Positions 13,189 through 44,971 of a stretch of 64,000 bases of DNA are shown in pieces. Every line of letters starts with the position of its first letter. The first letter of the stretch is position 1. Under the pieces are notes generated by a model. That model searched no databases. It was not told the DNA's origin and was given only the letters and a program-made list of their open reading frames with translations. Both the position numbers and the translations under genes were made by a program. This DNA is from Verrucomicrobiales bacterium (GTDB lineage: Bacteria; Verrucomicrobiota; Verrucomicrobiia; Limisphaerales; J093). The stretch covers positions 590,789 through 654,788 of the forward strand of contig JACKPV010000023.1 in the NCBI GenBank assembly GCA_024233305.1, written 5' to 3'.

Positions 13189-13394
13189 GGTGCGGGCTTG
13201 TGTCAGGCTGCGGCGCGAGTCTACCCCGGCCCGGCGGCCGGGGGAACCTCGAAGTGTCCCGAATCCCCCGACGTCGGGTTTGGGAGTCCCGAACGGCTTT
13301 GCCGGCAGCGGGCGGGTCGCGCGACATCGGAGACAGGGATCCGGGGCGAAGTTCCGCTTACGTCCGGCCTGAGTCCGCGGTAAAGATAGCGGGC

Positions 13395-15527
13395 GTGAAA
13401 GCCATCCTCCGCCGGTTACGATCCGGTTCTGCGGGGCCCGTTCCTGGCATCCCGTTAGCGTTCCTCCTTTCAAGCTGTCTGCTGGCGGTGGTTGCCGGCG
13501 AGCGCACCCAGCGTTTTGCCGCCACGTCACCGGGAGAGGCTGCCCAATGGCGGGAGGCGACGCGGGAGGCCCTGTTCCGCCTGATGATGGGCGGTCGCCG
13601 GCCGGCCGCTGTGCCGCTGGATCCGGTGTTGCTGCGGCATGAGCCGGCGGGGGCCGACGGCATCCGGCTCGAAGAACTCTCGATCCAGACCCTGCCGGAC
13701 CGGCGCGTGCATCTCTGGCTGGCACTGCCGTCGGAGGCCCGCGGGCGGGTGGGAGCGGTGCTGGCGCTCCACGGCCACGGCGGGACCGGGGAACAGGTGG
13801 TGCGCGGACAGGGCTTGTATTGGTACGGTCGCGCGCTGGCCCGCCTGGGCTACGTGGTGATCGCGCCGGACATCGGACAGCACATTTTGCAGCACGCGGA
13901 CTGGAGCCTGATGGGCGAACGAACCTGGGACGCCCTCCGCTGTCTGGATTATCTCGAAACCCGGCCGGAGGTGGACGCCGACCGCCTGGCGGTGGCGGGG
14001 CTTTCGTTGGGCGGGGAAACCACGATGTATGTCGCCGCGCTGGATGAACGCATCAAGGCCGCTTGCAGCAGCGGTTGGCTGACGACCGTGGCGAACATGA
14101 AGAACGGTCACTGCCCTTGCTGGGACTTCCCCGGCCTGGAAGCGCACTTTGATTTCGCCGACATCTTCGCGTGCGTGGCGCCGCGGCCGTTGGTGATGGA
14201 GATCGGCGAATTGGAACGGGCGCCCGGCGGGTTTCCGGTCGGGATCGCCCGCGGGGCATTTGCCGAAATTCGGCGGGCCTATGCGGTGAGCGGGGTCGGC
14301 AGCAACGCGGAACTGGTCGTCCATCCGTCCGGGCATGTCTTCAACGGGGTCCGGTTCTGGGAGATCCTGGGCGATGGGTTGGGCCGGCCGGAGCGGAGGG
14401 AGGAGGGTGATCCGAAATCCGAGAGTGCCGAAGTCCGGTTTCTCGCGGATGCCGCCCGGCGTCTGCTGGAAGGGTGCCAGGTTCCCGGTGTGGGTGGGCA
14501 TCCGTTCTACACCCCCGACGGCAAGGGCAATTACCGCGCGCTATGGACGCGGGATTTCACCTACATGGTCGAGAACGCCGGCGACCTCATCCCTGAGGCG
14601 GACGTCGAAGCCTGCATTCAGGCCCTCGTGGCCGGCATCCGGGAGGATGGCGCCGCGCCGGATCGCGTGCGTCCGGAAGGCGTGGCGGTTTACACGGCCG
14701 GGGGCGAAGGGCATCCTATTGGCGAACCGAACATCGACAACGCGCAGTTCCTCGCCATCGCCGTGGACACACACTTGCGACGCGTCGACCCGTTCGGCCG
14801 CCTGGCGCTCTTCCGGGCTTGGTCCGGACCGCTGGATCGCGCGATGGACTACATCCCGCGCGGTGGGAGCGGGCTGGTCTACAATGATCCGGCGAAGCCC
14901 CATTCACCATACGGGTTCACGGATACCATCGGGAAGACGGGCGAACTGCTGTTCGAGTCGTTGCTGTATTGGACAGCCTGCCAACGACTGGCGGATTGGC
15001 ATGAAGCCTTGGGCGGGCCGCGGGCGGGCGAGTATCGTCGGCGGGCGGCCCTGATCGAATCGAACCTGGCAACGCTCTGGGACGACGACGCGGGGGCGTT
15101 CGTGGCGGCGACGGAGGATTGCCGGCAACTCGACATCTGGGGCAACGCCTTCGCGGTCTGGCTGGACTTCCCGCTGGGCGACCGGCGCGAGCGGGTGATC
15201 GACTTCCTCGTCTCGCAGCGGGAACGATTCCTCTGGCGCGGCCAGGTGCGGCATTTGCTGGCGGGCGAACACTGGGAACGGTTGCTGGTGCCCATCGCGC
15301 CGGAGCGCTATCAAAACGGGGCCTACTGGGCGACCGCCTCCGGCTGGATGATGTGGGCCCTCGCGCAACGGGACGAGCACCTCGCGCGCGACCTTTGGGA
15401 CGAGTTGATTCAGGACTTCCGCGAACGCGGGATCTTCGAGTGCATCAACGAAGGCTACACGCAGCTCGACAGCTATGTGGTGAGCGCGACCAATCCCCTG
15501 GCGGCCGCGCGACGCCTCGGGTTTTGA
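13395..15527 (+). CDS. Two-domain hydrolase: alpha/beta-hydrolase (esterase-like) N-terminus fused to an (alpha/alpha)6-barrel glycoside-hydrolase-like C-terminus
   Basis: The N-terminal half has LALHGHGGTGE and the nucleophile elbow AGLSLGG. The C-terminal half has ALWTRDFTYMVEN, NIDNAQFLAI and YQNGAYWATASGWMMWAL. The GTG start at 13395 is a guess (signal-like LAFLLSSCLLAVVAG). The stop TGA at 15525..15527 lies inside the MITE target duplication. Confidence 0.7.
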   Translation: MKAILRRLRSGSAGPVPGIPLAFLLSSCLLAVVAGERTQRFAATSPGEAAQWREATREALFRLMMGGRRPAAVPLDPVLLRHEPAGADGIRLEELSIQTLPDRRVHLWLALPSEARGRVGAVLALHGHGGTGEQVVRGQGLYWYGRALARLGYVVIAPDIGQHILQHADWSLMGERTWDALRCLDYLETRPEVDADRLAVAGLSLGGETTMYVAALDERIKAACSSGWLTTVANMKNGHCPCWDFPGLEAHFDFADIFACVAPRPLVMEIGELERAPGGFPVGIARGAFAEIRRAYAVSGVGSNAELVVHPSGHVFNGVRFWEILGDGLGRPERREEGDPKSESAEVRFLADAARRLLEGCQVPGVGGHPFYTPDGKGNYRALWTRDFTYMVENAGDLIPEADVEACIQALVAGIREDGAAPDRVRPEGVAVYTAGGEGHPIGEPNIDNAQFLAIAVDTHLRRVDPFGRLALFRAWSGPLDRAMDYIPRGGSGLVYNDPAKPHSPYGFTDTIGKTGELLFESLLYWTACQRLADWHEALGGPRAGEYRRRAALIESNLATLWDDDAGAFVAATEDCRQLDIWGNAFAVWLDFPLGDRRERVIDFLVSQRERFLWRGQVRHLLAGEHWERLLVPIAPERYQNGAYWATASGWMMWALAQRDEHLARDLWDELIQDFRERGIFECINEGYTQLDSYVVSATNPLAAARRLGF

Positions 15528-15615
15528 GGTGCGCATCTCAGCTCTTTCGGAGCGCGGAATTCATTCCGCAGCAAGGTTGACTCCCGGCGGGGTCTGCGGA
15601 GTGAATTCCGCGCTC

Positions 15616-17571
15616 GTGCGCCTGTGAGGGCGTCCATATTGCGAGGTGAAAGTCCTCGTCAGGCGGTTCATTCACCCGCCTGTGACCGAAGGCTACTGCG
15701 TCGTGGCAACACGGGGTGGAGAGCTGCCGGAGGTGAACCATCGGTCCGTAACGAAGCGAAGTGAGACAACGAAGCCATGTGAACCCGATTCGGCCACGCC
15801 GAGCGGCGAGCCTGCGAGCGCTGTGCGAAGCCCAGGCCATGACCCAAGTGGGAGGACTTCCCTCGGTCGGCACCAGGCGACCGGGTCTTCTGGCTGGCGG
15901 TCCCGGCAGAGGAAGAGTGGATGGAGACAAATGCCCGGACTGGCGCGGTGGGGTGGTTGGGGACGGAACGATGGGAAGCATGGGCGAAGGAAGCAGGGAG
16001 ACCCGTCGGGGAACAGAACGGTGTTCATGGCCGCAAGGTCCGAAGAGCCGCCCGGCGGGAGTCAGAGCGTCCATAGTAGCGAGGAAGCGGGGTAACGCCC
16101 GGGGAGCGAAGGGGCGCAGGGAAGTGGAGACGGAACGACCATGACGAACGACGAACGCCAAGAACGACCGGCGATAGTGTCTGGGGCAACCCAGGCTAAA
16201 CAAGCCGGAGAGGTCCGCGCCCCTGGGTGGTGGATCCAACGTTCGGTATGGACGGACCGGATGCTAACGCGGCTCGCCCAAAGCGGGTCGACAACGGTAT
16301 GGTTCGGACTCTGGGACAAAGTCTGCGCGCTGCGGAACCTGCAGGCCGCTTTCCACGCGGTATGGCGGAACCGGGGTGCTCCCGGAGTGGATGGACAAAC
16401 GGTGCAACAGTTCGACCAACAGGGGACGAGCGAATTGGCCCGCCTGGGGGAAGAATTGCGCACCGGGAGCTACCGCCGCCAACCGGCGCGGCGCGTCTGG
16501 ATCGGGAAAATGGGCACGACCGAGAAGCGACCGCTGGGCATCCCGGCGGTGCGGGACCGGACCGTGGAAGCGGCCTTGCGCAATGTTCTGGAGCCGATCT
16601 TGGAGCGGGACTTTGCCGAGTGCAGCTATGGGTTTCGACCGGGACGTGGCTGTCGGGAAGCGGTGGGAAGGGTGGAAGAGTGGATGAGCCAAGGCTACGT
16701 CTGGTGCGTGGACGCGGACCTCAAGAGCTACTTTGACACCATTCCGCATGAGGGACTGATGGCGTTGGTCAAACAGCGAGTGGTGGATGGCAGGGTCCTG
16801 GCGCTGGTGGAACAATGCCTGAAGGCCGGCGTGCTGGAAACGCTCAAGGGCTGGCAGCCGACCGAACGCGGGACCCCGCAGGGGGCCGTGATCAGTCCGC
16901 TCCTGGCGAACCTGTATCTCAACCCGTTGGACCAGGAGATGGAACGGCGGGGCTGGGCGATGGTGCGCTATGCGGATGATTTGGTGGTGCTGTGCCGGAG
17001 CCGGGAAGCGGCCGAGACGGTGCTGGACTATCTGCGGGAGTGGACCACGGGAGCGGGGCTGACCCTGCACCCGACCAAGACCCGGATAGTGAACGCCACC
17101 GACGAGGGATTCGATTTCCTGGGCTGGCACTTCCGCGGGGGGAAGAAATGGCCGCGGAAGAAGAGCCGCAAGAAGCTGCCGGAGCGGTTGCGACCGCTGA
17201 CGCGACGGACCCACGGGCGAAGCCTGGGGGAAATCATCGCGAAAGTGAACCCGATCCTGCGGGGTTGGCTCGGCTACTTCCGGGACAGTTACCCGACGGG
17301 CCTGAGTGGCCCGGATGGGTGGCTGCGCCGCCGCTTGCGGGCGCTGCTGCGCAAGCGGGAGAAGCGGCCCGGACACGGGCTGAGTGAAGCCGACAGCCGA
17401 CGCTGGCCGAACCGCTGGTTTGCGGCGCAGGGCTTGTTTAGTCTGGAACATGGCTCGCGCGCTTACAGTTAGTCTCGCCGAGACCCCACTGACCGGAGAG
17501 CCGTATGCGGGAAATCCGCCCGTACGGTTCGGAGGGAGGGGTGGCGCTAATCCCGTCATCCCTACCCCTAT
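15616..17571 (+). mobile_element. Group II intron, copy 1 (1956 nt, IIC-like)
   Basis: The 5' end is GTGCGCC and the 3' end is CCCCTAT. Domain V is GAGCCGTATGCGGGAAATCCGCCCGTACGGTTC at 17498..17530 (AGC triad, GAAA loop, bulge), followed by a domain VI-like helix. The ORF sits in domain IV. Confidence 0.9.
16141..17472 (+). CDS. Group II intron reverse transcriptase/maturase (no endonuclease domain)
   Basis: RT motifs present: RRVWIGKMGTTEKRPLGIP, GFRPGRGCREA, DADLKSYFDTIPH, GTPQGAVISPLLANLYL and VRYADDLVVLC (YADD). The maturase X motif is ILRGWLGYFR. The protein is 443 aa and ends shortly after the X domain. Confidence 0.92.
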   Translation: MTNDERQERPAIVSGATQAKQAGEVRAPGWWIQRSVWTDRMLTRLAQSGSTTVWFGLWDKVCALRNLQAAFHAVWRNRGAPGVDGQTVQQFDQQGTSELARLGEELRTGSYRRQPARRVWIGKMGTTEKRPLGIPAVRDRTVEAALRNVLEPILERDFAECSYGFRPGRGCREAVGRVEEWMSQGYVWCVDADLKSYFDTIPHEGLMALVKQRVVDGRVLALVEQCLKAGVLETLKGWQPTERGTPQGAVISPLLANLYLNPLDQEMERRGWAMVRYADDLVVLCRSREAAETVLDYLREWTTGAGLTLHPTKTRIVNATDEGFDFLGWHFRGGKKWPRKKSRKKLPERLRPLTRRTHGRSLGEIIAKVNPILRGWLGYFRDSYPTGLSGPDGWLRRRLRALLRKREKRPGHGLSEADSRRWPNRWFAAQGLFSLEHGSRAYS

Positions 17572-17655
17572 CAACTCTTCGGGCCGCACGGAGTCGGAAA
17601 ACACTGAGATGCGCACGGTTTTGAGGTCGGTCGAACTGCGGGCTTGCTTCCTGTG

Positions 17656-20106: not shown

Positions 20107-22062
20107 ATAGGGGTAGGGATGACGGGATTAGCGCCACCCCTCCCTCCGAACCGTACGGGCGGATTTCCCGCATACGGCTCTCCGGTCAGTGGGGTCTCGG
20201 CGAGACTAACTGTAAGCGCGCGAGCCATGTTCCAGACTAAACAAGCCCTGCGCCGCAAACCAGCGGTTCGGCCAGCGTCGGCTGTCGGCTTCACTCAGCC
20301 CGTGTCCGGGCCGCTTCTCCCGCTTGCGCAGCAGCGCCCGCAAGCGGCGGCGCAGCCACCCATCCGGGCCACTCAGGCCCGTCGGGTAACTGTCCCGGAA
20401 GTAGCCGAGCCAACCCCGCAGGATCGGGTTCACTTTCGCGATGATTTCCCCCAGGCTTCGCCCGTTGGTCCGTCGCGTCAGCGGTCGCAACCGCTCCTGC
20501 AGCTTCTTGCGGCTCTTCTTCCGCGGCCATTTCTTCCCCCCGCGGAAGTGCCAGCCCAGGAAATCGAATCCCTCGTCGGTGGCGTTCACTATCCGGGTCT
20601 TGGTCGGGTGCAGGGTCAGCCCCGCTCCCGTGGTCCACTCCCGCAGATAGTCCAGCACCGTCTCGGCCGCTTCCCGGCTCCGGCACAGCACCACCAAATC
20701 ATCCGCATAGCGCACCATCGCCCAGCCCCGCCGTTCCATCTCCTGGTCCAACGGGTTGAGATACAGGTTCGCCAGGAGCGGACTGATCACGGCCCCCTGC
20801 GGGGTCCCGCGTTCGGTCGGCTGCCAGCCCTTGAGCGTTTCCAGCACGCCGGCCTTCAGGCATTGTTCCACCAGCGCCAGGACCCTGCCATCCACCACTC
20901 GCTGTTTGACCAACGCCATCAGTCCCTCATGCGGAATGGTGTCAAAGTAGCTCTTGAGGTCCGCGTCCACGCACCAGACGTAGCCTTGGCTCATCCACTC
21001 TTCCACCCTTCCCACCGCTTCCCGACAGCCACGTCCCGGTCGAAACCCATAGCTGCACTCGGCAAAGTCCCGCTCCAAGATCGGCTCCAGAACATTGCGC
21101 AAGGCCGCTTCCACGGTCCGGTCCCGCACCGCCGGGATGCCCAGCGGTCGCTTCTCGGTCGTGCCCATTTTCCCGATCCAGACGCGCCGCGCCGGTTGGC
21201 GGCGGTAGCTCCCGGTGCGCAATTCTTCCCCCAGGCGGGCCAATTCGCTCGTCCCCTGTTGGTCGAACTGTTGCACCGTTTGTCCATCCACTCCGGGAGC
21301 ACCCCGGTTCCGCCATACCGCGTGGAAAGCGGCCTGCAGGTTCCGCAGCGCGCAGACTTTGTCCCAGAGTCCGAACCATACCGTTGTCGACCCGCTTTGG
21401 GCGAGCCGCGTTAGCATCCGGTCCGTCCATACCGAACGTTGGATCCACCACCCAGGGGCGCGGACCTCTCCGGCTTGTTTAGCCTGGGTTGCCCCAGACA
21501 CTATCGCCGGTCGTTCTTGGCGTTCGTCGTTCGTCATGGTCGTTCCGTCTCCACTTCCCTGCGCCCCTTCGCTCCCCGGGCGTTACCCCGCTTCCTCGCT
21601 ACTATGGACGCTCTGACTCCCGCCGGGCGGCTCTTCGGACCTTGCGGCCATGAACACCGTTCTGTTCCCCGACGGGTCTCCCTGCTTCCTTCGCCCATGC
21701 TTCCCATCGTTCCGTCCCCAACCACCCCACCGCGCCAGTCCGGGCATTTGTCTCCATCCACTCTTCCTCTGCCGGGACCGCCAGCCAGAAGACCCGGTCG
21801 CCTGGTGCCGACCGAGGGAAGTCCTCCCACTTGGGTCATGGCCTGGGCTTCGCACAGCGCTCGCAGGCTCGCCGCTCGGCGTGGCCGAATCGGGTTCACA
21901 TGGCTTCGTTGTCTCACTTCGCTTCGTTACGGACCGATGGTTCACCTCCGGCAGCTCTCCACCCCGTGTTGCCACGACGCAGTAGCCTTCGGTCACAGGC
22001 GGGTGAATGAACCGCCTGACGAGGACTTTCACCTCGCAATATGGACGCCCTCACAGGCGCAC
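20107..22062 (-). mobile_element. Group II intron, copy 2 (1956 nt) in a decayed MITE
   Basis: Same ends and length as copy 1, on the minus strand. The 5' flank hairpin arm is CTGCGGAATGAATTCCGCGCTC. A degenerate terminus GCGCGCATCCCGG at 20086..20098 matches the MITE end at 10 of 13 positions. Confidence 0.9.
20206..21537 (-). CDS. Group II intron reverse transcriptase/maturase
   Basis: 443 aa. It matches the copy-4 RT except H to N in RRTNGRS. Relative to copy 1 it also has Q for P in KKLQERL. Confidence 0.92.
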   Translation of the reverse strand: MTNDERQERPAIVSGATQAKQAGEVRAPGWWIQRSVWTDRMLTRLAQSGSTTVWFGLWDKVCALRNLQAAFHAVWRNRGAPGVDGQTVQQFDQQGTSELARLGEELRTGSYRRQPARRVWIGKMGTTEKRPLGIPAVRDRTVEAALRNVLEPILERDFAECSYGFRPGRGCREAVGRVEEWMSQGYVWCVDADLKSYFDTIPHEGLMALVKQRVVDGRVLALVEQCLKAGVLETLKGWQPTERGTPQGAVISPLLANLYLNPLDQEMERRGWAMVRYADDLVVLCRSREAAETVLDYLREWTTGAGLTLHPTKTRIVNATDEGFDFLGWHFRGGKKWPRKKSRKKLQERLRPLTRRTNGRSLGEIIAKVNPILRGWLGYFRDSYPTGLSGPDGWLRRRLRALLRKREKRPGHGLSEADSRRWPNRWFAAQGLFSLEHGSRAYS

Positions 22063-22173
22063 GAGCGCGGAATTCATTCCGCAGCAAGCTTGACGGCCGG
22101 TGGGGCCAGCGGAATGAACCCCGTGCACCATTTCCCCAGCCGCCTCGGACTTGTGAAAAGCTGCGCCGTGACC

Positions 22174-23273: not shown

Positions 23274-24406
23274 ATGAACGCCGAAGCCAAAGCCAGCGAT
23301 TGTCCCGAGCGCGACATCTTCTTCGAAGCCATCGAAAAGGCATCGGAGGAAGAGCGCGCGGCGTACGTCGAGGTGGCCTGCGGCGAGGATGCGGCCCTGC
23401 GTCGGCGCGTCGAGGTCCTGCTGACCGACCATTCCGAGGACGACGAGTTCATGCGGACCCCGGTCGCGGAGATTGTGGCCCTGGATACACCCAACGCGGC
23501 AACACTGGAACAACCCGGCACCCTGATCGGCCGCTACCGGCTACTGGAACCACTCGGCGAAGGCGGGTTCGGCGTGGTCCATCTGGCGGACCAACAGGAG
23601 CCGATCCGCCGCCAGGTCGCCCTGAAGATCATCAAGCTGGGCATGGACACCCGGCAGGTCATCGCCCGCTTCGAGGCCGAGCGGCAGGCCCTGGCGATGA
23701 TGGACCATCCCAACATCGCCAAGGTGCTCGATGCCGGGGTCACGGAGACTGGACGTCCCTACTTCGTCATGGAACGGGTCCGGGGCATTCCGATCACGCG
23801 GTTCTGCGAGGAAAACCGACTCTCGATCGAGGGACGCCTCGAACTCCTCATCCCCGTCTGCCACGCCATCCAGCATGCCCACCAGAAGGTGATCATTCAC
23901 CGGGACATCAAGCCCTCGAACGTCCTGGTCACGGGCAGTCCCGATGGTTCGGGCCACCCGATGGTGATCGACTTCGGAGTCGCCAAGGCCATCGAGGAAC
24001 CGCTTACCGACAAGCCGCTCCACACCAGCCTGCTCCAGATGATCGGCACGCCGGCTTACATGAGCCCCGAGCAGGCCGAGCGGGGACCGGGCGGCGTCAG
24101 CGATGTGGACACCCGCAGCGACGTCTATTCGCTGGGCATCCTGCTTTATGAACTCCTCACCGGCACCACGCCTTTTCCCGAGGAACGGCTGCGAGAAGCC
24201 GGGTTCGCCGAGATTCAACGGATCCTCAGCCAGGAGGAACCGCAGCAGCCGTCCGCCCGCCTTGCGGAAATCCAGGGGAGCACACGCGCCCCCGCGTGTC
24301 CCCGACCGGCGCCCCCGCCGGTTGGCTCTGGAAAGGGGGCTGGGGCCGGAAGTGAAAACGGATTCGACGGGGGCGTCGAATCCTGCACGCGAGGGCGCGT
24401 GCGCTC
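23274..24406 (+). CDS. Ser/Thr protein kinase, exon 1 (interrupted by group II intron copy 3)
   Basis: Hanks kinase motifs present: GEGGFGVVHLA, VALKIIK, IIHRDIKPSNVLV, DFGVAKA, GTPAYMSPEQ and DVYSLGILLYELLTG. The ORF-track tail beyond 24406 reads into the intron. Confidence 0.85.
24278..24406 (+). repeat. 129-nt hairpin cluster inside the kinase ORF, immediately 5' of intron copy 3
   Basis: Four local hairpins with C4 or G-rich tetraloops: 24282..24299 (ACACGCG-CCCC-CGCGTGT), 24305..24322 (ACCGGCG-CCCC-CGCCGGT), 24360..24383 (GGATTCGACG-GGGG-CGTCGAATCC) and 24385..24402 (GCACGCG-AGGG-CGCGTGC). The outer 21 nt are also mutually complementary, with 2 mismatches. Confidence 0.7.
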
Positions 24407-26362
24407 GTGCGCCTGTGAGGGCGTCCATATTGCGAGGTGAAAGTCCTCGTCAGGCGGTTCATTCACCCGCCTGTGACCGAAGGCTACTGCGTCGTGGCAA
24501 CACGGGGTGGAGAGCTGCCGGAGGTGAACCATCGGTCCGTAACGAAGCGAAGTGAGACAACGAAGCCATGTGAACCCGATTCGGCCACGCCGAGCGGCGA
24601 GCCTGCGAGCGCTGTGCGAAGCCCAGGCCATGACCCAAGTGGGAGGACTTCCCTCGGTCGGCACCAGGCGACCGGGTCTTCTGGCTGGCGGTCCCGGCAG
24701 AGGAAGAGTGGATGGAGACAAATGCCCGGACTGGCGCGGTGGGGTGGTTGGGGACGGAACGATGGGAAGCATGGGCGAAGGAAGCAGGGAGACCCGTCGG
24801 GGAACAGAACGGTGTTCATGGCCGCAAGGTCCGAAGAGCCGCCCGGCGGGAGTCAGAGCGTCCATAGTAGCGAGGAAGCGGGGTAACGCCCGGGGAGCGA
24901 AGGGGCGCAGGGAAGTGGAGACGGAACGACCATGACGAACGACGAACGCCAAGAACGACCGGCGATAGTGTCTGGGGCAACCCAGGCTAAACAAGCCGGA
25001 GAGGTCCGCGCCCCTGGGTGGTGGATCCAACGTTCGGTATGGACGGACCGGATGCTAACGCGGCTCGCCCAAAGCGGGCCGACAACGGTATGGTTCGGAC
25101 TCTGGGACAAAGTCTGCGCGCTGCGGAACCTGCAGGCCGCTTTCCACGCGGTATGGCGGAACCGGGGTGCTCCCGGAGTGGATGGACAAACGGTGCAACA
25201 GTTCGACCAACAGGGGACGAGCGAATTGGCCCGCCTGGGGGAAGAATTGCGCACCGGGAGCTACCGCCGCCAACCGGCGCGGCGCGTCTGGATCGGGAAA
25301 ATGGGCACGACCGAGAAGCGACCGCTGGGCATCCCGGCGGTGCGGGACCGGACCGTGGAAGCGGCCTTGCGCAATGTTCTGGAGCCGATCTTGGAGCGGG
25401 ACTTTGCCGAGTGCAGCTATGGGTTTCGACCGGGACGTGGCTGTCGGGAAGCGGTGGGAAGGGTGGAAGAGTGGATGAGCCAAGGCTACGTCTGGTGCGT
25501 GGACGCGGACCTCAAGAGCTACTTTGACACCATTCCGCATGAGGGACTGATGGCGTTGGTCAAACAGCGAGTGGTGGATGGCAGGGTCCTGGCGCTGGTG
25601 GAACAATGCCTGAAGGCCGGCGTGCTGGAAACGCTCAAGGGCTGGCAGCCGACCGAACGCGGGACCCCGCAGGGGGCCGTGATCAGTCCGCTCCTGGCGA
25701 ACCTGTATCTCAACCCGTTGGACCAGGAGATGGAACGGCGGGGCTGGGCGATGGTGCGCTATGCGGATGATTTGGTGGTGCTGTGCCGGAGCCGGGAAGC
25801 GGCCGAGACGGTGCTGGACTATCTGCGGGAGTGGACCACGGGAGCGGGGCTGACCCTGCACCCGACCAAGACCCGGATAGTGAACGCCACCGACGAGGGA
25901 TTCGATTTCCTGGGCTGGCACTTCCGCGGGGGGAAGAAATGGCCGCGGAAGAAGAGCCGCAAGAAGCTGCAGGAGCGGTTGCGACCGCTGACGCGACGGA
26001 CCCACGGGCGAAGCCTGGGGGAAATCATCGCGAAAGTGAACCCGATCCTGCGGGGTTGGCTCGGCTACTTCCGGGACAGTTACCCGACGGGCCTGAGTGG
26101 CCCGGATGGGTGGCTGCGCCGCCGCTTGCGGGCGCTGCTGCGCAAGCGGGAGAAGCGGCCCGGACACGGGCTGAGTGAAGCCGACAGCCGACGCTGGCCG
26201 AACCGCTGGTTTGCGGCGCAGGGCTTGTTTAGTCTGGAACATGGCTCGCGCGCTTACAGTTAGTCTCGCCGAGACCCCACTGACCGGAGAGCCGTATGCG
26301 GGAAATCCGCCCGTACGGTTCGGAGGGAGGGGTGGCGCTAATCCCGTCATCCCTACCCCTAT
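24407..26362 (+). mobile_element. Group II intron, copy 3 (1956 nt), inside the kinase ORF in sense orientation
   Basis: Same GTGCGCC...CCCCTAT ends and length as the other copies, anchored by conserved internal ORF offsets. Confidence 0.9.
24932..26263 (+). CDS. Group II intron reverse transcriptase/maturase
   Basis: 443 aa. It matches the copy-4 RT except S to P in LAQSGPTTVW. Confidence 0.92.
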   Translation: MTNDERQERPAIVSGATQAKQAGEVRAPGWWIQRSVWTDRMLTRLAQSGPTTVWFGLWDKVCALRNLQAAFHAVWRNRGAPGVDGQTVQQFDQQGTSELARLGEELRTGSYRRQPARRVWIGKMGTTEKRPLGIPAVRDRTVEAALRNVLEPILERDFAECSYGFRPGRGCREAVGRVEEWMSQGYVWCVDADLKSYFDTIPHEGLMALVKQRVVDGRVLALVEQCLKAGVLETLKGWQPTERGTPQGAVISPLLANLYLNPLDQEMERRGWAMVRYADDLVVLCRSREAAETVLDYLREWTTGAGLTLHPTKTRIVNATDEGFDFLGWHFRGGKKWPRKKSRKKLQERLRPLTRRTHGRSLGEIIAKVNPILRGWLGYFRDSYPTGLSGPDGWLRRRLRALLRKREKRPGHGLSEADSRRWPNRWFAAQGLFSLEHGSRAYS

Positions 26363-28136
26363 CCCGGAGGATGTCACGCTCGGTTTCAAGGTTCCCACCG
26401 ACCTCGACTGGATCGTGCTCAAGGCCATCGACAAGGACCGCAACCGCCGCTACGTCACCCCCAACGAACTGGCCGATGACCTCAGGCGTTTCCTCAAGAA
26501 CGAGCCCATCCTCGCCCGTCCTATCAGCCAGACCGCCAGAGTGTGGCGCTGGTGCCGACGTCACACGGCGGTCGCAGCCCTGACTGCCGGCTTGGTCCTG
26601 GCGCTGATCGCCGGCTTTGGCGGTACTCTCTGGCAGTTGCAGCGGGCGGAACAAAATGCTGCCGAGAACCTCCGCCAAGTCGCCCGGTTGAACGTCCTCA
26701 CCGGCGTCAACCTCCTGCAGGAAGGCGACTCCTTCAAGAGCCTGCTCTGGTTCGCCGAAGCCCTGGCGCTGAAGGCCGGGCCGCCCGAACGCGACGTCGT
26801 GGATCGGCTCCGCATCGCTTCCATCATCGCGCAAGGGCCGCGACTCGCCGCCGTCATCACCCACGACGGCCAACCCGTTGCCGACGCCGCCTTTCATTCC
26901 ACGAAGGATCAACTCGCCACCGTGGGACGCGACCGTCGCCTGCGCCTCTGGGACCTTGCCACCGTCGAGACAGTGTTCCTGACCGAACCCTTTGCCGAAC
27001 GTCCTTCCGAGGTCCTCTTCTCACCCGACGGCGAAGTGATCCTGGTGGGCAGCTCCGAGTTCAACCAGGTGCGCATGATCTCCGCGTTGGATGGCAAGCC
27101 GCTGAGCAACACCATCCCTCACTTTGCCGGCGGGGCGAACAACCGCCCGCTGCCACCACGCTTCGATGCTTTAGGTGAACGCCTTCTCACCCAAAGCGCA
27201 CCGAAAACACTTCGAGTCTGGGCTGTGCGCGACGGCTCCCCGCTCGGCCCGTCGATCCCGCTCGGCGCCCCGGTCGCGTGGACGGGCTTCAGCGAACATG
27301 GCACGCAAGTTCGGACGGTCACTCAGGACGGGAAGGCGACGACTTGGGATTGGCGAAGTGGAAGCCGGATATCGAACCCAGAACCCCGAACGCTGAATAT
27401 CGAAGGCGAGCCCAACTTCGACGTTGGACGTTCAGTGTTCGACATTCGAAGTTCGACTTCAGTCCGCAGCCCCGACGGCTCCCGCTACGCCACCCTTGCC
27501 GCCGATCACCGCGTGCGTGTCTGGGACTCGGGAACCGACGAACCGCTCACACCTCCCATCGACCATTTCACGGCGTCCGGCCCCGTCGGTTTCAGCGCCA
27601 ATGGCCGGTTCTTCTTCACGATGCACCCGGCCCATGCGGTGTACGTTTGGGAACTTCCGGAGAATACCGAACCGCCAGTCCTGCTCCGGCCCGAGGCCCC
27701 GAACACTCTGGCGGAGACTGGCCGGGACGGTTCGGTCATTGTGACCCGTGATCCGGGCAGCCCGATTCGCGTGCGGGCCCTGTCGGGTACCCAGGAAGTG
27801 TCCCTCCATCCCGCCAGCCTGAAGGAAGTTCCCGTGCAGGCATGGTTCGATGACACCGGCCAGTTCATCATCCTCGAATACCCGAACCAGCGTGCTCAGG
27901 TCTGGGATGCCACCTCCGGTCTGCCTGTCACTCCCGTGTTCCGGAGCCGCTACGCCACCAATGAAGCCGCCTACCGGACGATCCAGTTTCCTGATTTCCC
28001 ATCTGACACTCGCCACTCGCCGCCGCAGGCCCTGGCCGAACTCCTCTCCGGCAGCCGCCTCGACGGCACCGGCGGTTGGAAGCCGCTCGAACTGGGCGAC
28101 ATCCTCGCGCGCTGGAATGCTGTCAATCGCGAATAG
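26363..28136 (+). CDS. Ser/Thr protein kinase, exon 2 (juxtamembrane segment, TM helix, WD40-like beta-propeller)
   Basis: It resumes with PEDVTLGFKVPTDLDWIVLKAIDKDRNRRYVTPNELADDLRRFL, the typical post-catalytic segment of PVC kinases. It continues with the TM helix AVAALTAGLVLALIAGFGGTLW and WD-like repeats (RLRLWDLAT, TLRVWAV, HRVRVWDSGT, AVYVWEL, RAQVWDATS). Confidence 0.85.
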
Positions 28137-35936: not shown

Positions 35937-36300
35937 ACGAGAGATCTACAGTCGAACGCCGGCAGGGTAGTCATTTCAAGTGGTCATGTCAAACGACGGG
36001 TCGCTCTGGAGAAAAGAGAGGCCGGTCCTGAAGGCGGACACTGGTCTGCTCAGCGGTCATCCCCTGCGCTTGTGCCGGTCCTGGGGCAACAGGCTCGACG
36101 CCTTCGTCCACGCTTCCCTGGGCAGCCTTTCAGCCAGCCGCTTCAGCCTCATCGTGGGCTCCTGCGGCAGTCTGTGGCGTGCGCATCTCAGTTTTTTCAC
36201 AGCGAGGGAGAAATGGTGGTGTGAACGAAGCGCCACCGGCTGAAAAATAGTGTCATTTTAGACGGGACTCTGATCCTCCCCTTCGCCATAGTCCGCGGGC

Positions 36301-37212
36301 GTGACGGAGTGCGAAGTGATTCAAGGCCGGCGGATGGGCCCCGGGGATCTGACCCAGGTCAAGGACCTCCTGGCCCGGCATCCGGACTGGAGCCGATACC
36401 GTTTGAGCCGGGAACTGGCGCAGTTGTGGGCGTGGCGCAGCGCGGCGGGCCAACTCAAGGACATGGCCGCCCGGAGCCTGCTGCTCAAGCTCGAGCAGCG
36501 CGGCTGGATCACCCTGCCACCCTGCCGCTGGGCCTCGCCCAACCGGATGCGCCACAAACGCCCGCCCTCCCTGCCAGCGTCGTTCCATCCGGAGCCGCTA
36601 CCGGGCCCCTTGTCGGCGCTGCGACCGCTCAAGCTCAGCGAAGTCAGTGCCGGACCGGCGACCGAGCGGGCCCTGTTTGAAGGGTTGCTGCACCGCTATC
36701 ACTATCTGAGCCACCGCAGCCCGGTAGGGGAGAACCTCCAGTATTTGGTGCGGGAACGGGCCGGGCGACCGGTGGCCTGCCTGCTCTTTGGCGCGGCGGC
36801 TTGGCAGTGCGCCGATCGCGACCGCCACATCGGCTGGGATCGCGCCACGCGGGCGGCCCAGCTTCCTCTGATCGCCAACAACACGCGCTTCCTGATCCTG
36901 CCTTGGATTGGCGTGCCGGGACTCGCCAGCCATCTCCTGGCCCGCGTCAGCCGCCGGGTCCGGGCCGACTGGCAGCGCAAGTACGGGCACCCGGTTTATC
37001 TGCTGGAGACCTTTGTCGAGACCGGGCGTTTCGCCGGCACCTGTTATCGCGCGGCCAACTGGCAACGCGTTGGTCAGACCAAAGGTCGTAGCCGGCAGGA
37101 CTCCCCGGAGGGCGGAGCGCTGCAGGTCCCTCGCAAAGACGTCTATCTCTACCCGCTGATTCCCCGCTACGCCGAACGCTTGCGGGCAGTCCCCAACCCC
37201 ACCCATCCATGA
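36301..37212 (+). CDS. DUF4338-domain protein (IS accessory ORF)
   Basis: YHYLSHRSPVGENLQYLVRERAGRPVACLLFGAAAWQCADRDRHIGW...FLILPWIGVPGLASHLL...GHPVYLLETFVETGRFAGTCYRAANWQRVGQTKGR. The stop overlaps the transposase start (ATGA at 37209). Confidence 0.75.
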   Translation: MTECEVIQGRRMGPGDLTQVKDLLARHPDWSRYRLSRELAQLWAWRSAAGQLKDMAARSLLLKLEQRGWITLPPCRWASPNRMRHKRPPSLPASFHPEPLPGPLSALRPLKLSEVSAGPATERALFEGLLHRYHYLSHRSPVGENLQYLVRERAGRPVACLLFGAAAWQCADRDRHIGWDRATRAAQLPLIANNTRFLILPWIGVPGLASHLLARVSRRVRADWQRKYGHPVYLLETFVETGRFAGTCYRAANWQRVGQTKGRSRQDSPEGGALQVPRKDVYLYPLIPRYAERLRAVPNPTHP

Positions 37213-37836
37213 GCCCAGAAATCCCCCCCTCCGTTCCTCGCCGCTCCCGCCGACCCCACGTTAAAGTCCGCCGCGAGCAGCGCCGCCAAGCCCAAGAACA
37301 ACAACCCCTCACCGAGGAGATCCTGACGGCGGGCCAGGCGGCGGCGCAAGCCGCTGCCACCCTCTCCCAAGTGTGCCTCACCGAGGCCGAAGTGGCCGCC
37401 TGGCGCCAGGACCTGGAAAAGCGACTGGCCAGCCTCCAGGAGCACCCCGAACAGAACCTGGGCTTCATCGAGGAGCAACTCGCCCTGGCCAGCCGGGAAT
37501 CCATCCGCCTGCTGGCCGAGCGGGCCGCCCAGGCCAAGGCCAACGCCACCCCTTGCCAGTGCCTCACCTGCCAGCAACCCCTGCGGCGGCAGCGCTATCT
37601 GGCCCGCACCATCGAGTCGCGCTTCGGCCCCTTGCGGGTGTTCCGCAACTACGGCTGGTGCCCCAAGTGCGACGCGTGGCAGTTCCCGGCCGATCCCGCC
37701 TTGGCATTGAGTCGCCATGCCCCCGCTTCCCCCTATGTCCAGGAGATGGCCGCGCTGCTGGTAAGCAAAATGCCCCCCGAGCAGGCCGTGCCGGTGGCCC
37801 AACGCATGGGACTCCAACTCTCCCGCTGCACCCTCG
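37209..37836 (+). pseudogene. ISKra4-family transposase, N-terminal fragment (split by the IS21-like insertion)
   Basis: It carries the Zn-finger-like CQCLTCQQPLRRQRYLARTIESRFGPLRVFRNYGWCPKCDAWQFPAD. The reading frame continues exactly at 41709 once 37837..41708 is removed. Confidence 0.75.
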
Positions 37837-37949
37837 TGCGTAGCGACAATTAAAACTTTCCAGTGACGATTATCGGATTGGCGGTGGTTTGGGGATGATG
37901 AGGCGGCGGCCCCGCCCGAGGCCAGAAGGCCTCGGGGGGGCTGCCGCGA

Positions 37950-38460
37950 ATGATCACCAAACAACATTACCGAAAACTGATGAGCGAGTATCAAGAGACT
38001 GGAAACGTGAGCGTGAGCGCCATGAAGGCGGGGATGAGCCGGCCGACGGCGCAGAAGTATCTGAAGGCGGGTCAACCGCCGCAGGAACTTCAAGGGAAGC
38101 ACACTTGGCGGACGCGGGAGGATCCTTTGGAGGAGATCTGGCCGCAGGCTTTGGTGATGCTTGAGGAGAGCCCGGATCTGGAGGCGAAGGCTCTCTTCGA
38201 ATACCTGGGGGAACGGTCGCCGTGGGCGGTGCAGGAGAAGCAACTGCGGACCTTTCAGCGGCGGGTCAAGGTGTGGCGTCTGCAACATGGGCCGGACAAG
38301 GAGGTCTTTTTTCCTCAGGACTGGGAAGCCGGACGGGCGATCCAGTTGGACTGGACCAATGCGAACGAGCTGGCGGTGACTATCAGCGGGCAGCCATACG
38401 AGCACCAGCTTTGCCACTGCGTGTTGCCCCATTCCAACTGGGACTGGGCCACCCGGTGTT
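37950..38460 (+). pseudogene. istA: IS21-family transposase IstA, N-terminal fragment
   Basis: The HTH N-terminus is MITKQHYRKLMSEYQETGNVSVSAMKAGMSRPTAQKYLK. It is intact to ...HSNWDWATRC and then runs into the IS3-like left end. Confidence 0.75.
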
Positions 38461-38520
38461 TGGATCTCCCCCGATTTCGTGGACAGGGAGGGCGCAGTCA
38501 GCGAAGAAAGACCGACTGAC

Positions 38521-38853
38521 ATGCCCAAAACCAGACCTGCCTACACCGAAGAGTTCCGCCAGCAGGCGGTCCAACTGCTCCTGGACAGCGGTCGCCCCCT
38601 GGACCGGGTGGCCGCCGAACTGGGCGTCTCCGCCAACTCCCTCCGTTCCTGGCGGGACCGTTCCCTGGGCCGGGGGCGTGGAGCGCAGGCCCCTTCGACG
38701 CAGTCGAAGGGCCGGAGCGCAACGCCCCCGGCCCACGCCGCCGAGCAGATCCGCCAGCTCCACCGCGAGGTCCAATACCTCCGCCGCCAGCGCGACATCC
38801 TAAAAAAAGCCATGAGCATACTGGCCGGGGAACCGCAGGGCAGTATGCACTGA
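38521..38853 (+). CDS. IS3-family OrfA (HTH + leucine-zipper-like)
   Basis: MPKTRPAYTEEFRQQAVQLLLDSGRPLDRVAAELGVSANSLRSWR...QLHREVQYLRRQRDILKKA. Confidence 0.85.
   Translation: MPKTRPAYTEEFRQQAVQLLLDSGRPLDRVAAELGVSANSLRSWRDRSLGRGRGAQAPSTQSKGRSATPPAHAAEQIRQLHREVQYLRRQRDILKKAMSILAGEPQGSMH
38802..38808 (+). promoter_or_regulatory. A7 slippery run, candidate programmed -1 frameshift site for the OrfAB fusion
   Basis: AAAAAAA followed by G lies within orfA. The -1 frame is open from here (KKSHEHTGRGTAGQYALIDQLRSHFPL) into orfB, as is usual for the IS3 family. Confidence 0.55.
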
Positions 38854-38861
38854 TCGATCAA

Positions 38862-39728
38862 TTGCGGTCCCACTTTCCCCTCACCGAGCTCTGTGATGCC
38901 CTCGCCGTTTCCCGCTCCGGTTACCACGCCTCCCGCCGCCGCCAGCCCGGGCCCCGCGCCCGCCAGCAGGTGGTCCTGCTCCAGGCCATTGAGAAGGTCC
39001 GCGCCCATCGCCATGCCCGCTGTTACGGCAGTCCCCGGATGACTCATCAACTCCGTCGCCAGGGCCATCAGGTCTCCGAGAACCGTGTCGCCCGCCTCAT
39101 GCGCGCCAACCACCTGCGCGCCCGGCCCCGGCGTCCCTACCGACCCAAGACCACCCAGCCCGACCACGCTGCCTGTCCCTCCCCCAACCTCCTGGCCAGC
39201 GCGCCCGCCCCTACCGCCCCAGGCCAGCAACTGGTCAGCGACATCACCTACATTCCCACCGCCGAGGGCTGGCTCTACCTGGCCCTGGTCGTGGATCGTT
39301 TCAGCCGCAGCGTCTTTGGCTGGCACTTGGCCGACTCCCTTCACGCGGACCTGGTTTGCCACGCCCTGGACCACGCCCACCGCACCGGCCTGATCGGCCC
39401 CCAAGCGATCTTCCACTCCGATCGGGGCTGCCAATACACCGCCGCCCTCCTGCGCGGCCAACTCGCCCGCCTGGGCCTGCGCCAGAGCATGAGCGCCCGA
39501 GGGCATTGCTATGACAACGCCATGGCCGAAAGCGTCTTTGCCGCTCTCAAGGCCGAGGCCCTGCCCCCCGAGCAGCCCTTCGCCTCCCGGGCCCTGGCCC
39601 GCAGCGCCCTCTTCGACTACCTCGAAACCTTCTACAACCGCCAGCGCCTGCACAGTTCGCTCGGCTACCGGCCACCCCGAGAATTCCTGGATCTCTACTT
39701 CCAAACCCACCCTCTTGCACTACACTGA
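38862..39728 (+). CDS. IS3-family OrfB (DDE integrase core)
   Basis: VSDITYIPTAEGWLYLALVVDRFSRSVFGW, IFHSDRGCQYTA and HCYDNAMAESVFAALKAE give the D, D, E context. It is probably expressed as OrfAB by a frameshift at 38802..38808. Confidence 0.88.
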   Translation: MRSHFPLTELCDALAVSRSGYHASRRRQPGPRARQQVVLLQAIEKVRAHRHARCYGSPRMTHQLRRQGHQVSENRVARLMRANHLRARPRRPYRPKTTQPDHAACPSPNLLASAPAPTAPGQQLVSDITYIPTAEGWLYLALVVDRFSRSVFGWHLADSLHADLVCHALDHAHRTGLIGPQAIFHSDRGCQYTAALLRGQLARLGLRQSMSARGHCYDNAMAESVFAALKAEALPPEQPFASRALARSALFDYLETFYNRQRLHSSLGYRPPREFLDLYFQTHPLALH

Positions 39729-39781
39729 ACTCAACAAAACCCTGCGCCCCGCCTGTCCACTTTTTCGGGGGAAGACCAGTT

Positions 39782-42676: not shown

Positions 42677-43015
42677 ACACCCCACACCCTGGACCGCATC
42701 CCCTCCCGCCAAAAACCTGAGATGCGCACGTCTGTGGCCGGCGGTCTGGTGGTTGAAGAATCTGACAGATTAGAAGTTGATGACACGGCTTCCATGGCGT
42801 TCTCTTCCGAGGATTCCTCCAAAACCCCTTCTTCCTTCTTCGGGATACGCTTCTCGGGCGGCGCGCCGATCCTCATGTTCCAAAGAGTCGCGACAAAAGT
42901 GAAAGTGCGCATCTCAGTGTTTTCCGACTCCGTGCGGCCCGAAGAGTCGGAGCGCGGAATTCATTCCGCAGACCCCGCCGGGAGTCAACCTTGCTGCGGA
43001 GTGAATTCCGCGCTC

Positions 43016-44971
43016 GTGCGCCTGTGAGGGCGTCCATATTGCGAGGTGAAAGTCCTCGTCAGGCGGTTCATTCACCCGCCTGTGACCGAAGGCTACTGCG
43101 TCGTGGCAACACGGGGTGGAGAGCTGCCGGAGGTGAACCATCGGTCCGTAACGAAGCGAAGTGAGACAACGAAGCCATGTGAACCCGATTCGGCCACGCC
43201 GAGCGGCGAGCCTGCGAGCGCTGTGCGAAGCCCAGGCCATGACCCAAGTGGGAGGACTTCCCTCGGTCGGCACCAGGCGACCGGGTCTTCTGGCTGGCGG
43301 TCCCGGCAGAGGAAGAGTGGATGGAGACAAATGCCCGGACTGGCGCGGTGGGGTGGTTGGGGACGGAACGATGGGAAGCATGGGCGAAGGAAGCAGGGAG
43401 ACCCGTCGGGGAACAGAACGGTGTTCATGGCCGCAAGGTCCGAAGAGCCGCCCGGCGGGAGTCAGAGCGTCCATAGTAGCGAGGAAGCGGGGTAACGCCC
43501 GGGGAGCGAAGGGGCGCAGGGAAGTGGAGACGGAACGACCATGACGAACGACGAACGCCAAGAACGACCGGCGATAGTGTCTGGGGCAACCCAGGCTAAA
43601 CAAGCCGGAGAGGTCCGCGCCCCTGGGTGGTGGATCCAACGTTCGGTATGGACGGACCGGATGCTAACACGGCTCGCCCAAAGCGGGTCGACAACGGTAT
43701 GGTTCGGACTCTGGGACAAAGTCTGCGCGCTGCGGAACCTGCAGGCCGCTTTCCACGCGGTATGGCGGAACCGGGGTGCTCCCGGAGTGGATGGACAAAC
43801 GGTGCAACAGTTCGACCAACAGGGGACGAGCGAATTGGCCCGCCTGGGGGAAGAATTGCGCACCGGGAGCTACCGCCGCCAACCGGCGCGGCGCGTCTGG
43901 ATCGGGAAAATGGGCACGACCGAGAAGCGACCGCTGGGCATCCCGGCGGTGCGGGACCGGACCGTGGAAGCGGCCTTGCGCAATGTTCTGGAGCCGATCT
44001 TGGAGCGGGACTTTGCCGAGTGCAGCTATGGGTTTCGACCGGGACGTGGCTGTCGGGAAGCGGTGGGAAGGGTGGAAGAGTGGATGAGCCAAGGCTACGT
44101 CTGGTGCGTGGACGCGGACCTCAAGAGCTACTTTGACACCATTCCGCATGAGGGACTGATGGCGTTGGTCAAACAGCGAGTGGTGGATGGCAGGGTCCTG
44201 GCGCTGGTGGAACAATGCCTGAAGGCCGGCGTGCTGGAAACGCTCAAGGGCTGGCAGCCGACCGAACGCGGGACCCCGCAGGGGGCCGTGATCAGTCCGC
44301 TCCTGGCGAACCTGTATCTCAACCCGTTGGACCAGGAGATGGAACGGCGGGGCTGGGCGATGGTGCGCTATGCGGATGATTTGGTGGTGCTGTGCCGGAG
44401 CCGGGAAGCGGCCGAGACGGTGCTGGACTATCTGCGGGAGTGGACCACGGGAGCGGGGCTGACCCTGCACCCGACCAAGACCCGGATAGTGAACGCCACC
44501 GACGAGGGATTCGATTTCCTGGGCTGGCACTTCCGCGGGGGGAAGAAATGGCCGCGGAAGAAGAGCCGCAAGAAGCTGCAGGAGCGGTTGCGACCGCTGA
44601 CGCGACGGACCCACGGGCGAAGCCTGGGGGAAATCATCGCGAAAGTGAACCCGATCCTGCGGGGTTGGCTCGGCTACTTCCGGGACAGTTACCCGACGGG
44701 CCTGAGTGGCCCGGATGGGTGGCTGCGCCGCCGCTTGCGGGCGCTGCTGCGCAAGCGGGAGAAGCGGCCCGGACACGGGCTGAGTGAAGCCGACAGCCGA
44801 CGCTGGCCGAACCGCTGGTTTGCGGCGCAGGGCTTGTTTAGTCTGGAACATGGCTCGCGCGCTTACAGTTAGTCTCGCCGAGACCCCACTGACCGGAGAG
44901 CCGTATGCGGGAAATCCGCCCGTACGGTTCGGAGGGAGGGGTGGCGCTAATCCCGTCATCCCTACCCCTAT
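43016..44971 (+). mobile_element. Group II intron, copy 4 (1956 nt)
   Basis: Same ends and length as the other copies. It is inserted after the hairpin at 42950..43015. Confidence 0.9.
43541..44872 (+). CDS. Group II intron reverse transcriptase/maturase
   Basis: 443 aa. This is the apparent consensus of the four copies. It has one synonymous difference near 43670 (ACA versus ACG). Confidence 0.92.
   Translation: MTNDERQERPAIVSGATQAKQAGEVRAPGWWIQRSVWTDRMLTRLAQSGSTTVWFGLWDKVCALRNLQAAFHAVWRNRGAPGVDGQTVQQFDQQGTSELARLGEELRTGSYRRQPARRVWIGKMGTTEKRPLGIPAVRDRTVEAALRNVLEPILERDFAECSYGFRPGRGCREAVGRVEEWMSQGYVWCVDADLKSYFDTIPHEGLMALVKQRVVDGRVLALVEQCLKAGVLETLKGWQPTERGTPQGAVISPLLANLYLNPLDQEMERRGWAMVRYADDLVVLCRSREAAETVLDYLREWTTGAGLTLHPTKTRIVNATDEGFDFLGWHFRGGKKWPRKKSRKKLQERLRPLTRRTHGRSLGEIIAKVNPILRGWLGYFRDSYPTGLSGPDGWLRRRLRALLRKREKRPGHGLSEADSRRWPNRWFAAQGLFSLEHGSRAYS

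Follow-up and report, generated by a model that had tools for sequence, protein, structure and literature searches.

A probable unclassified group II intron lineage that has an E/F-like ribozyme and hairpin-associated insertion sites in a Verrucomicrobiales genome

Bacterial group II introns of class C (IIC), such as B.h.I1, O.i.I1, GsI-IIC, and E.r.I1, encode a reverse transcriptase (RT) without an endonuclease (En) domain and proliferate to many sites. Their targets consist of a DNA stem-loop, a short spacer with intron-binding site 1 (IBS1), and a single IBS3 base, and there is no pairing between exon-binding site 2 (EBS2) and IBS2. Zimmerly and Semper 2015 and other literature present the targeting of stem-loops as a property that class C alone has. 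The cryo-electron microscopy study of Chung 2022 likewise treats DNA stem-loop recognition as exclusive to class C/IIC, and uses it in an argument about the ancestral form in which EBS2 is a mimic of the DNA stem. Here, we analyze a group II intron present in four copies in a 64,000-nt stretch of a Verrucomicrobiales genome (assembly GCA_024233305.1, contig JACKPV010000023.1, positions 590,789 to 654,788; hereafter, the window). The intron shares all of the above properties with class C. Its RNA, however, is of a different type, and we consider it likely that the element represents an unclassified lineage of En-less introns and has recently been active, that its ribozyme is E/F-like while its targeting of structured DNA follows the IIC style, and that it has no EBS2. 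All evidence presented below is computational.

Several other systems are close to the window intron in part. Introns of class F (g2–g4) and class E (Ni.ha.I1, Pe.th.I2, Ge.ur.I1, and Cl.be.I2) are also En-less, encode RTs of ~430–445 amino acids, and are 1.9–2.0 kb long; unlike the window intron, they have a well-defined EBS2-IBS2 pairing. RmInt1, a class D intron of S. meliloti, is En-less and colonizes another mobile element, and its established route of mobility, by which it enters single-stranded DNA at replication forks, is the one we infer for the window intron; RmInt1, however, homes into a specific insertion sequence (IS) via EBS1, EBS2, and EBS3. In the case of IIC-attC introns (S.ma.I2), the hairpin can belong to another mobile element, as it does here. 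Elements of the IS110/IS1111 and IS200/IS605 groups similarly use the hairpin of a repeated palindrome (a repetitive extragenic palindrome, REP, or other) as a landing site, but these are DNA transposons whose chemistry differs from RNA-guided reverse splicing.

The intron copies and their insertion sites

One 1956-nt element, which starts with GTGCGCC and ends with CCCCTAT, occurs four times within the window:

15616..17571, + strand: intron copy 1, full length; private single-nucleotide change at intron nt 1565 (Q347P)
20107..22062, − strand: intron copy 2; private change at nt 1597 (H358N); hosted by a degenerate copy of a MITE (miniature inverted-repeat transposable element)
24407..26362, + strand: intron copy 3; private change at nt 673 (S50P); sense orientation within a Ser/Thr kinase-WD40 gene
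43016..44971, + strand: intron copy 4; private change at nt 654, synonymous; RT equal to the consensus
16141..17472, + strand: open reading frame (ORF) in domain IV, a 443-amino-acid RT/maturase with a YADD motif and without the D/En domain; Pfam RVT_1 and GIIM

The copies are 99.9% identical, each with a single private difference from the four-way consensus, and the similarity between them stops exactly at the intron boundaries. In all four, the 5′ flank ends with GCGCTC and the 3′ flank begins with C. The expected marks of a group II intron are present: the 5′ end GUGCG, a fold of six domains, a domain V (DV) triad, a bulged branch-point A, and an RT/maturase ORF in domain IV. Rfam model RF00029 (DV/DVI) matches every copy with 57.6 bits (gathering score 40), and the RT ORF scores 377 bits against NCBIfam TIGR04416 (cutoff 300). 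Its sequence identifies the element as an En-less group II intron that is intact and has recently been mobile. The initial annotation had reported four near-identical 1956-nt copies distinguished by P/Q, H/N, S/P, and synonymous changes and flanked by GCGCTC and C, three of them at a MITE and the fourth after a different hairpin (24385–24402) followed by GCTC; coordinates, termini, differences, and flanks were all reproduced. The recent activity that it proposed is likewise upheld by the intact RT ORF, the near identity of the copies, and a covarying ribozyme.

Relatives of the intron were gathered from genomes and metagenomes, and 26 insertion sites (4 from the window and 22 from relatives) were scored for a hairpin whose stem has 5 or more perfectly matched bp, whose loop measures 3–12 nt, and whose 3′ arm ends 3–6 nt before the insertion point. 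Such an in-register stem was found at 23 of the 26 sites, compared with 9.8% of random window positions; a stem of at least 6 bp was found at 15 sites, compared with 2.2% of random window positions. The spacing between stem and insertion point was exactly 4 nt, the modal value, at 13 sites, and at least 12 unrelated stem sequences keep a spacing of ~4 nt. Five deeper clade members (L012, L013, L014, L090, and L111), unscored by this metric, were judged by eye to lie shortly after a hairpin, the spacer being 4 nt in L012 and L013, and ~5–7 nt in L014, L090 (Sulfobacillus), and L111. The target hairpins are short (5–9 bp), GC-rich, and have no T-run; because of the latter they are not intrinsic terminators. 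When the same metric was applied to reference introns, all three IIC references were positive (terminator hairpins with stems of 9–14 bp and offsets of 3–7), while a qualifying in-register hairpin was found at none of the five F-like references with assignable 5′ ends. In a class D reference (L085, from a B. pseudofirmus plasmid), a 7-bp hairpin ends 2 nt before the 5′ junction; only one such case was seen, in an intron surrounded by RT genes of other introns, and it may be due to chance.

The window offers an internal comparison. The hexamer GCGCTC occurs 79 times on its two strands and is preceded by an in-register hairpin six times. An intron is present at four of these six sites and at none of the 73 hexamers without such a hairpin. 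With four of six in-register sites occupied, out of 79 hexamers, a chance association is excluded. The two empty sites with a hairpin followed by GCGCTC↓C (the arrow marks the insertion point) are the opposite strands of intact MITEs, at 15544–15549 (−) and 42944–42949 (−). Counted by locus, all four places in the window where a hairpin is joined to GCGCTC have been colonized. As read from these sites, a target consists of a small hairpin of GC-rich DNA followed by ~4 nt of unpaired sequence, after which the intron inserts, usually in front of a C.

Pairing between the intron and its exons was assigned to the following positions:

15816..15821, + strand: EBS1, GAGCGC, in the terminal loop of hairpin 15805–15832; covaries with IBS1
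15801..15801, + strand: tentative EBS3, G, 4 nt 5′ of the EBS1 stem

EBS1 is complementary to the last 4–6 exon bases in every relative (more than 30 related insertions). Eleven sequence variants of it were observed: GAGCGC, GAGUGC, GGGCG, GACCGC, GGAGC, GAGUCC, UAGUGC, ACUAAA, GUAGGG, GUAG, and AUAGC; the variant ACUAAA belongs to a Cupriavidus intron whose RT is only 48% identical. The EBS1-IBS1 pairing spans 5–6 bp at most sites and 4 bp in L012, with covariation at positions −5 and −6 (L093 and L081); it involves the four spacer bases and the last one or two bases of the stem. The GAGCGC motif at 15816..15821, which had been put forward as a candidate EBS1, thus proves to lie in a terminal loop and to covary with IBS1, rather than being trapped in a paired region. 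A search for EBS2, in which exon positions −7 to −18 were compared with domain I (DI), yielded only scattered, chance-like complementarity, and introns with the same sequence are found at sites whose exons diverge upstream of −6. Nearly every site has C as its IBS3. The tentative EBS3 at 15801 fits all sites with this C, as well as L081 (U-A) and L013 (C-G), and fails in L008 and L009. Insertion after stem-loops in the manner of IIC introns, as first suggested from the window alone, is supported by the 23 of 26 sites, the short IBS1 followed by C, and the lack of EBS2.

These data bear on a reading in which the intron is an ordinary, class F-like element that retrohomes to specific sequences, and the hairpin, itself unrecognized, is a by-product of the choice of repeats or harmless sites. 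Three of the four window sites are in the same MITE, sites L100–L107 share repeats, a 6-bp IBS1 together with IBS3 provides some sequence specificity, and the ribozyme resembles classes E and F, which are described as homing introns. Still, we regard this reading as unlikely. Repeat or site selection would not be expected to hold a ~4-nt spacing across a dozen or more unrelated stems, or to leave every hairpin-less GCGCTC empty; identical introns are found at sites with nothing in common but the hairpin and IBS1 (copies 1 and 3; L100 versus L108); there is no EBS2; and the assignable F-like references are without in-register hairpins. The position of copy 3 inside a gene, in addition, runs counter to pure selection of harmless sites.

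Ribozyme structure and RT phylogeny

A comparative model of DI–DIII comprising 134 pairs was built. Pairing in this model amounts to 94.5%, and 55 pairs are changed on both sides. The covariation score of the model (0.294) exceeds that of shuffles (0.147; 0 of 500 reached 0.294) and of slid controls (~0.06). The structural elements on which the RNA class assignment depends are:

15669..15675, + strand: α, CAUUCAC, in the terminal loop of hairpin IB (15660–15682); pairs with α′ (helix 5; four of seven pairs changed on both sides)
15917..15923, + strand: α′, GUGGAUG, in the terminal loop of the DId3 stem-loop; covaries with α
15686..15730, + strand: subdomain IC, consisting of one long hairpin capped by a GCAA tetraloop; lacks the IC2 hairpin that the Rfam D1D4-4 model contains
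15998..16063, + strand: domain II; fold supported by covariation
16067..16117, + strand: domain III; fold supported by covariation
17498..17530, + strand: domain V, 33 nt; AGC triad at 17499–17501, 4-bp distal stem, 5-nt loop GAAAU at 17511–17515
17564, + strand: bulged branch-point A of domain VI, 8 nt from the 3′ end, from the Rfam alignment and sequence reading

The α/α′ interaction is preserved by compensatory pairs (CAUUCAC/GUGGAUG, CGUUCAC/GUGAACG, and GCCAC/GUGGC). As alternatives for α′, strands of the sequence GGUGAAC were considered at J(IC/ID) and ahead of ID2 and rejected, since they did not covary with the IB loop.

According to Toor 2006, IIC RNA is defined by a CGC in place of AGC in DV and by a DV distal stem that is 2 bp shorter than in IIA/IIB; further marks are an abbreviated ribozyme with an 11-nt ε′ bulge containing AGGAA and an IBS1-EBS1 pairing of 3–4 bp. 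The window intron has an AGC triad; a DV distal stem of 4 bp with a 5-nt loop, compared with 3 bp and a tetraloop in the class C reference D.p.I1; an EBS1 of 4–6 bp; and ~624 nt of non-ORF RNA with a DI of ~380 nt, compared with ~410 nt for the IIC ribozyme. The AGGAA ε′ motif was not found in the 5′ part of DI. Of the IIC marks, only the hairpin in place of IBS2 is present. The hairpins themselves also differ from those of IIC introns, being short, GC-rich, and without a T-run, with a stem that overlaps IBS1 by one or two bases, and one copy is located in a gene. In contrast, both hallmarks of IIE/IIF introns given by Nagy 2013, a 5-nt DV loop instead of a 4-nt ζ′ loop and α′ in the DId3 terminal loop, are present in the window intron. 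Its DV, GCGG-GAAAU-CCGC, is identical in form to that of the class F/g3 intron Ni.ha.I1, and its IA motif GGUGAAAGUCC, IB, IC1, and CGUAACG region resemble the Rfam D1D4-4 model.

At gathering thresholds, no Rfam D1-D4 model matched the window introns. Permissive searches, whose results were used only alongside labeled references, gave weak matches to D1D4-4 (17.8 bits; gathering score 49) and D1D4-1 (16.7 bits), whereas F-like introns score 61–104 bits with D1D4-4. No match to D1D4-3 was found, while all three IIC references match that model at 51–136 bits. The DI of the class D reference (the intron of B. pseudofirmus pBpOF4-01, not RmInt1) matches D1D4-2. By its covariation-supported structure, then, the ribozyme is IIB-like and of the E/F type, but it departs from classes E and F in having no EBS2-IBS2, in the missing IC2 hairpin, and in its low D1D4-4 score.

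BLASTP identities of the window RT were as follows:

Cupriavidus intron, unlabeled (clade X): 48%
D.p.I1, class C: 41%
Ni.ha.I1, class F/g3: 39%
GsI-IIC / E.r., class C: 37–38%
Sr.me.I2, g1: 36%
T.el4h, CL: 35%
B. pseudofirmus pBpOF4-01 intron, class D: 31%

The identity to class C RTs (37–41%) is no higher than that to F-like RTs (39–41%). Among solved structures, the best matches are GsI-IIC (220.8 bits) and E.r. (217 bits), followed by IIB (165.6 bits) and IIA (132.8 bits) RTs. A neighbor-joining tree (357 columns, 100 bootstraps, 31 taxa) joined the window family with the Cupriavidus intron (100%) and then with Sulfobacillus (98%) in a distinct clade, clade X. Class C formed a separate clade (98%), with X and C as sisters (67%), an F-like clade was supported at 67%, and deeper nodes were unresolved (22%). 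In this tree, which had no labeled class E reference, the window RT family was not grouped with the F-like/D1D4-4 clade. The sequences assign the intron to an unclassified lineage, clade X, which would lie outside class C, its exact placement being tentative given the limited taxa.

Members of clade X come from Verrucomicrobiota, an Acidobacteriota metagenome-assembled genome (MAG), Cupriavidus, and Sulfobacillus. The RT search returned at least 8,000 matches, group II RTs in general included; among the matches listed, over 120 clusters belong to the close RT family, with identities of at least 78%. Toro 2013 lists an RT fragment of Chthoniobacter (Verrucomicrobia) as “unclassified”. Two RTs that are 79–80% identical to that of the window (P0078 and P0089) carry Nitrospira and Candidatus Binatia MAG names, which indicates either cross-phylum transfer or binning errors.

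The class C label attached to the intron at first is thus not sustained: RNA structure and RT phylogeny, the two grounds named beforehand on which the label could be refuted, both point outside class C. Much can be said for a bona fide class C intron that uses terminator-like stem-loops: the RT is without an En domain, its best structural matches are IIC RTs, class C is the nearest neighbor of its clade, if weakly supported, and targeting relies on a hairpin and IBS1 without EBS2. We nevertheless consider such an intron very unlikely here, since its RNA would have to deviate from IIC in the triad, the DV stem and loop, the length of EBS1, the size of the ribozyme, the AGGAA bulge, and the D1D4-3 match, all at once. 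Moreover, the well-supported class C clade excludes clade X, RT identities do not favor class C over F-like introns, and the hairpins are not terminators.

Host elements and independent insertions

The insertion sites in the window belong to the following elements:

15529..15615, + strand: MITE copy 1, left part (right part 17572–17616); 132 bp, terminal inverted repeat (TIR) GTGCGCATCTCAG, target site duplication (TSD) GGTTTTGAG
42905..43015, + strand: MITE copy 2, left part (right part 44972–44992); TSD AAAGTGAAA; orientation opposite to that of MITE copy 1
22063..22125, − strand: degenerate MITE remnant, source of the hairpin for intron copy 2
24275..24406 and 26363–26364, + strand: 134-nt palindromic insert in the kinase gene; its right-end hairpin 24385–24402 and GCTC make up the copy-3 target

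The MITE is a short, non-coding element of 132 bp with 13-bp TIRs (GTGCGCATCTCAG) and 9-bp TSDs, represented by two intact copies and one degenerate copy. Its central palindrome of 22 bp ends with GCGCTC and, as single-stranded DNA, folds with −28.3 kcal/mol (z = −7.6). Introns 1 and 4 sit at the 3′ end of this palindrome on opposite MITE strands. The proposal that a MITE supplies the preferred stem-loop stands for three of the four copies. The 5′ arm of the palindrome opens with GAGCGC (15550–15555 and 42950–42955), the same sequence as EBS1, and EBS1 would therefore have to compete with this arm for positions −5 and −6 of IBS1. In a local alternative hairpin of the MITE, GCGGA…TCCGC, the bases GCTC stay free.

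DNA-level spread, for example through the transposition of an intron-bearing MITE or through segmental duplication, has in its favor an ISKra4-family element with the same TIRs nearby and the separate 9-bp TSDs of MITE copies 1 and 2, but is extremely unlikely given the opposite MITE strands used by introns 1 and 4, the highly diverged MITE that hosts the 99.9% identical intron copy 2, and the location of copy 3 outside this MITE, with similarity ending exactly at the intron boundaries. Because the orientations in the two MITEs, the old diverged MITE, and the unrelated palindrome of the kinase insert exclude duplication and MITE transposition, the four copies would represent four separate retromobility events.

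The kinase-WD40 ORF becomes continuous once intron copy 3 is removed; in the source Verrucomicrobiales MAG, its two halves are annotated as separate proteins. An uninterrupted homolog (P0121/L110, 80% identity) is collinear with the spliced sequence both in protein and in nucleotides, and its junction reads ...GCGAGGGCGCG(A/T)GCGCTC↓CCCG.... This collinearity fixes the intron boundaries independently, and the spliced kinase junction should read ...GCGCTC↓CCCGGAGG. The 134-nt insert has a minimum free energy of −90.7 kcal/mol, and its in-frame translation adds ~34 residues; it is unrelated to the MITE, absent from most homologs, and present in P0121/L110, which is from Pedosphaerales. Its left end provides another potential site for the intron, in this case in minus orientation (…CGCGTGTGCTC↓C).

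The ISKra4-family element (36179–42729) shares its 13-bp TIRs with the MITE, is flanked by a 9-bp TSD (GTCTGTGGC), and is probably the autonomous relative of the MITE. Its transposase is partial (41690–42676, spanning profile positions 175–374 of 422) owing to a nested IS21 element, with an istA-like gene at 39511–40770 and istB at 40760–41608 (228 bits). An ORF at 36301–37212 within the ISKra4-family element matches Pfam DruA.

The TSD of MITE copy 1 (GGTTTTGAG; 15520–15528 and 17617–17625) includes the TGA stop codon of an α/β-hydrolase ORF (13200–15527); first the MITE and then the intron thus inserted precisely where that gene ends.

In another metagenomic population, sites L100–L103 and L107 share a long palindromic repeat (…CATCCGCG…CGCGGACGAAGGCGTCCGCGCTC) with differing 3′ flanks, and the association of the intron with palindromic repeats therefore recurs outside the source genome. 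Tandem introns of the same family were also seen in other genomes: two copies lie 8 nt apart in L096 (2931–2940), a second copy directly abuts the first in L013 (4400–4401), and copies are ~175 nt apart in L098 and L099.

Proposed route of mobility and its meaning

A route of mobility can be proposed by analogy with En-less introns (RmInt1 and IIC) and from the structure of the E.r. IIC ribonucleoprotein (RNP) with DNA (Toor 2006; Chung 2022; Zimmerly and Semper 2015). The intron would be transcribed by read-through from the upstream gene; a called ORF is found directly upstream of each copy on the strand of the intron, of which only the α/β-hydrolase and the kinase are confirmed as genes. Splicing as a lariat would be helped by the RT/maturase, and the resulting RNP would reverse-splice into transiently single-stranded DNA at an extruded hairpin. 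The DNA stem may be read by its shape, through the thumb and C-terminal region of the RT together with DI, in the place of an EBS2-IBS2 pairing, and cDNA synthesis would be primed by the nascent strand at replication. A palindromic MITE would then serve as a landing pad with one site per strand. The GC skew of the window, calculated as an indicator of replication direction, was ~0 and thus uninformative.

Several observations weigh against the unclassified, hairpin-targeting lineage that we favor. EBS3 was not located: the candidate at intron position 186 fails in L008 and L009, and a scan across the whole alignment yielded no column. One class D reference likewise has a 7-bp hairpin near its 5′ junction, and isolated hairpins thus occur by chance. 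Several of the related sites sit in repeated elements and are not fully independent. The long palindrome of the MITE holds the IBS1 bases in paired form, and one has to assume either that the stem breathes or that a local alternative hairpin forms. The RT tree is a neighbor-joining tree of 31 taxa without labeled class A, B, E, and ML references, in which the sister relationship of X and C is supported at only 67%. The case for splicing and mobility, finally, is computational. On balance, a recently active En-less intron with an E/F-like ribozyme that targets structured DNA without EBS2 remains the probable interpretation.

To judge from the accessible literature, a widespread lineage that joins an E/F-type ribozyme to hairpin targeting would be new, although unpublished or non-open work may already describe it. 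Tentatively, clade X could be an evolutionary link between F-like (IIB-type) introns and IIC, one in which structured DNA came to be recognized and EBS2 was lost or never present, with the E/F-type ribozyme kept; we see this as possible, though doubtful.

If the proposed interpretation is correct, the minimal IIC ribozyme is not alone in targeting hairpins, and the mode of targeting and the minimal IIC RNA architecture are separable, which provides a test of the ancestral-form argument. If clade X is indeed such a link, IIC RNA may have arisen by reduction instead of being the primitive form, a possibility that bears on the idea of EBS2 and D1d2 as mimics of the DNA stem. Clade X would be a natural system for asking which parts of the RNP read DNA shape, and could be a candidate scaffold for structure-guided gene targeting with a longer, reprogrammable EBS1. 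In the genomes that carry these introns, palindromic MITEs and REP-like repeats would be recurrent partners, acting as two-sided landing pads in a nested ecology of mobile elements in which a MITE creates landing sites for the intron on both strands.

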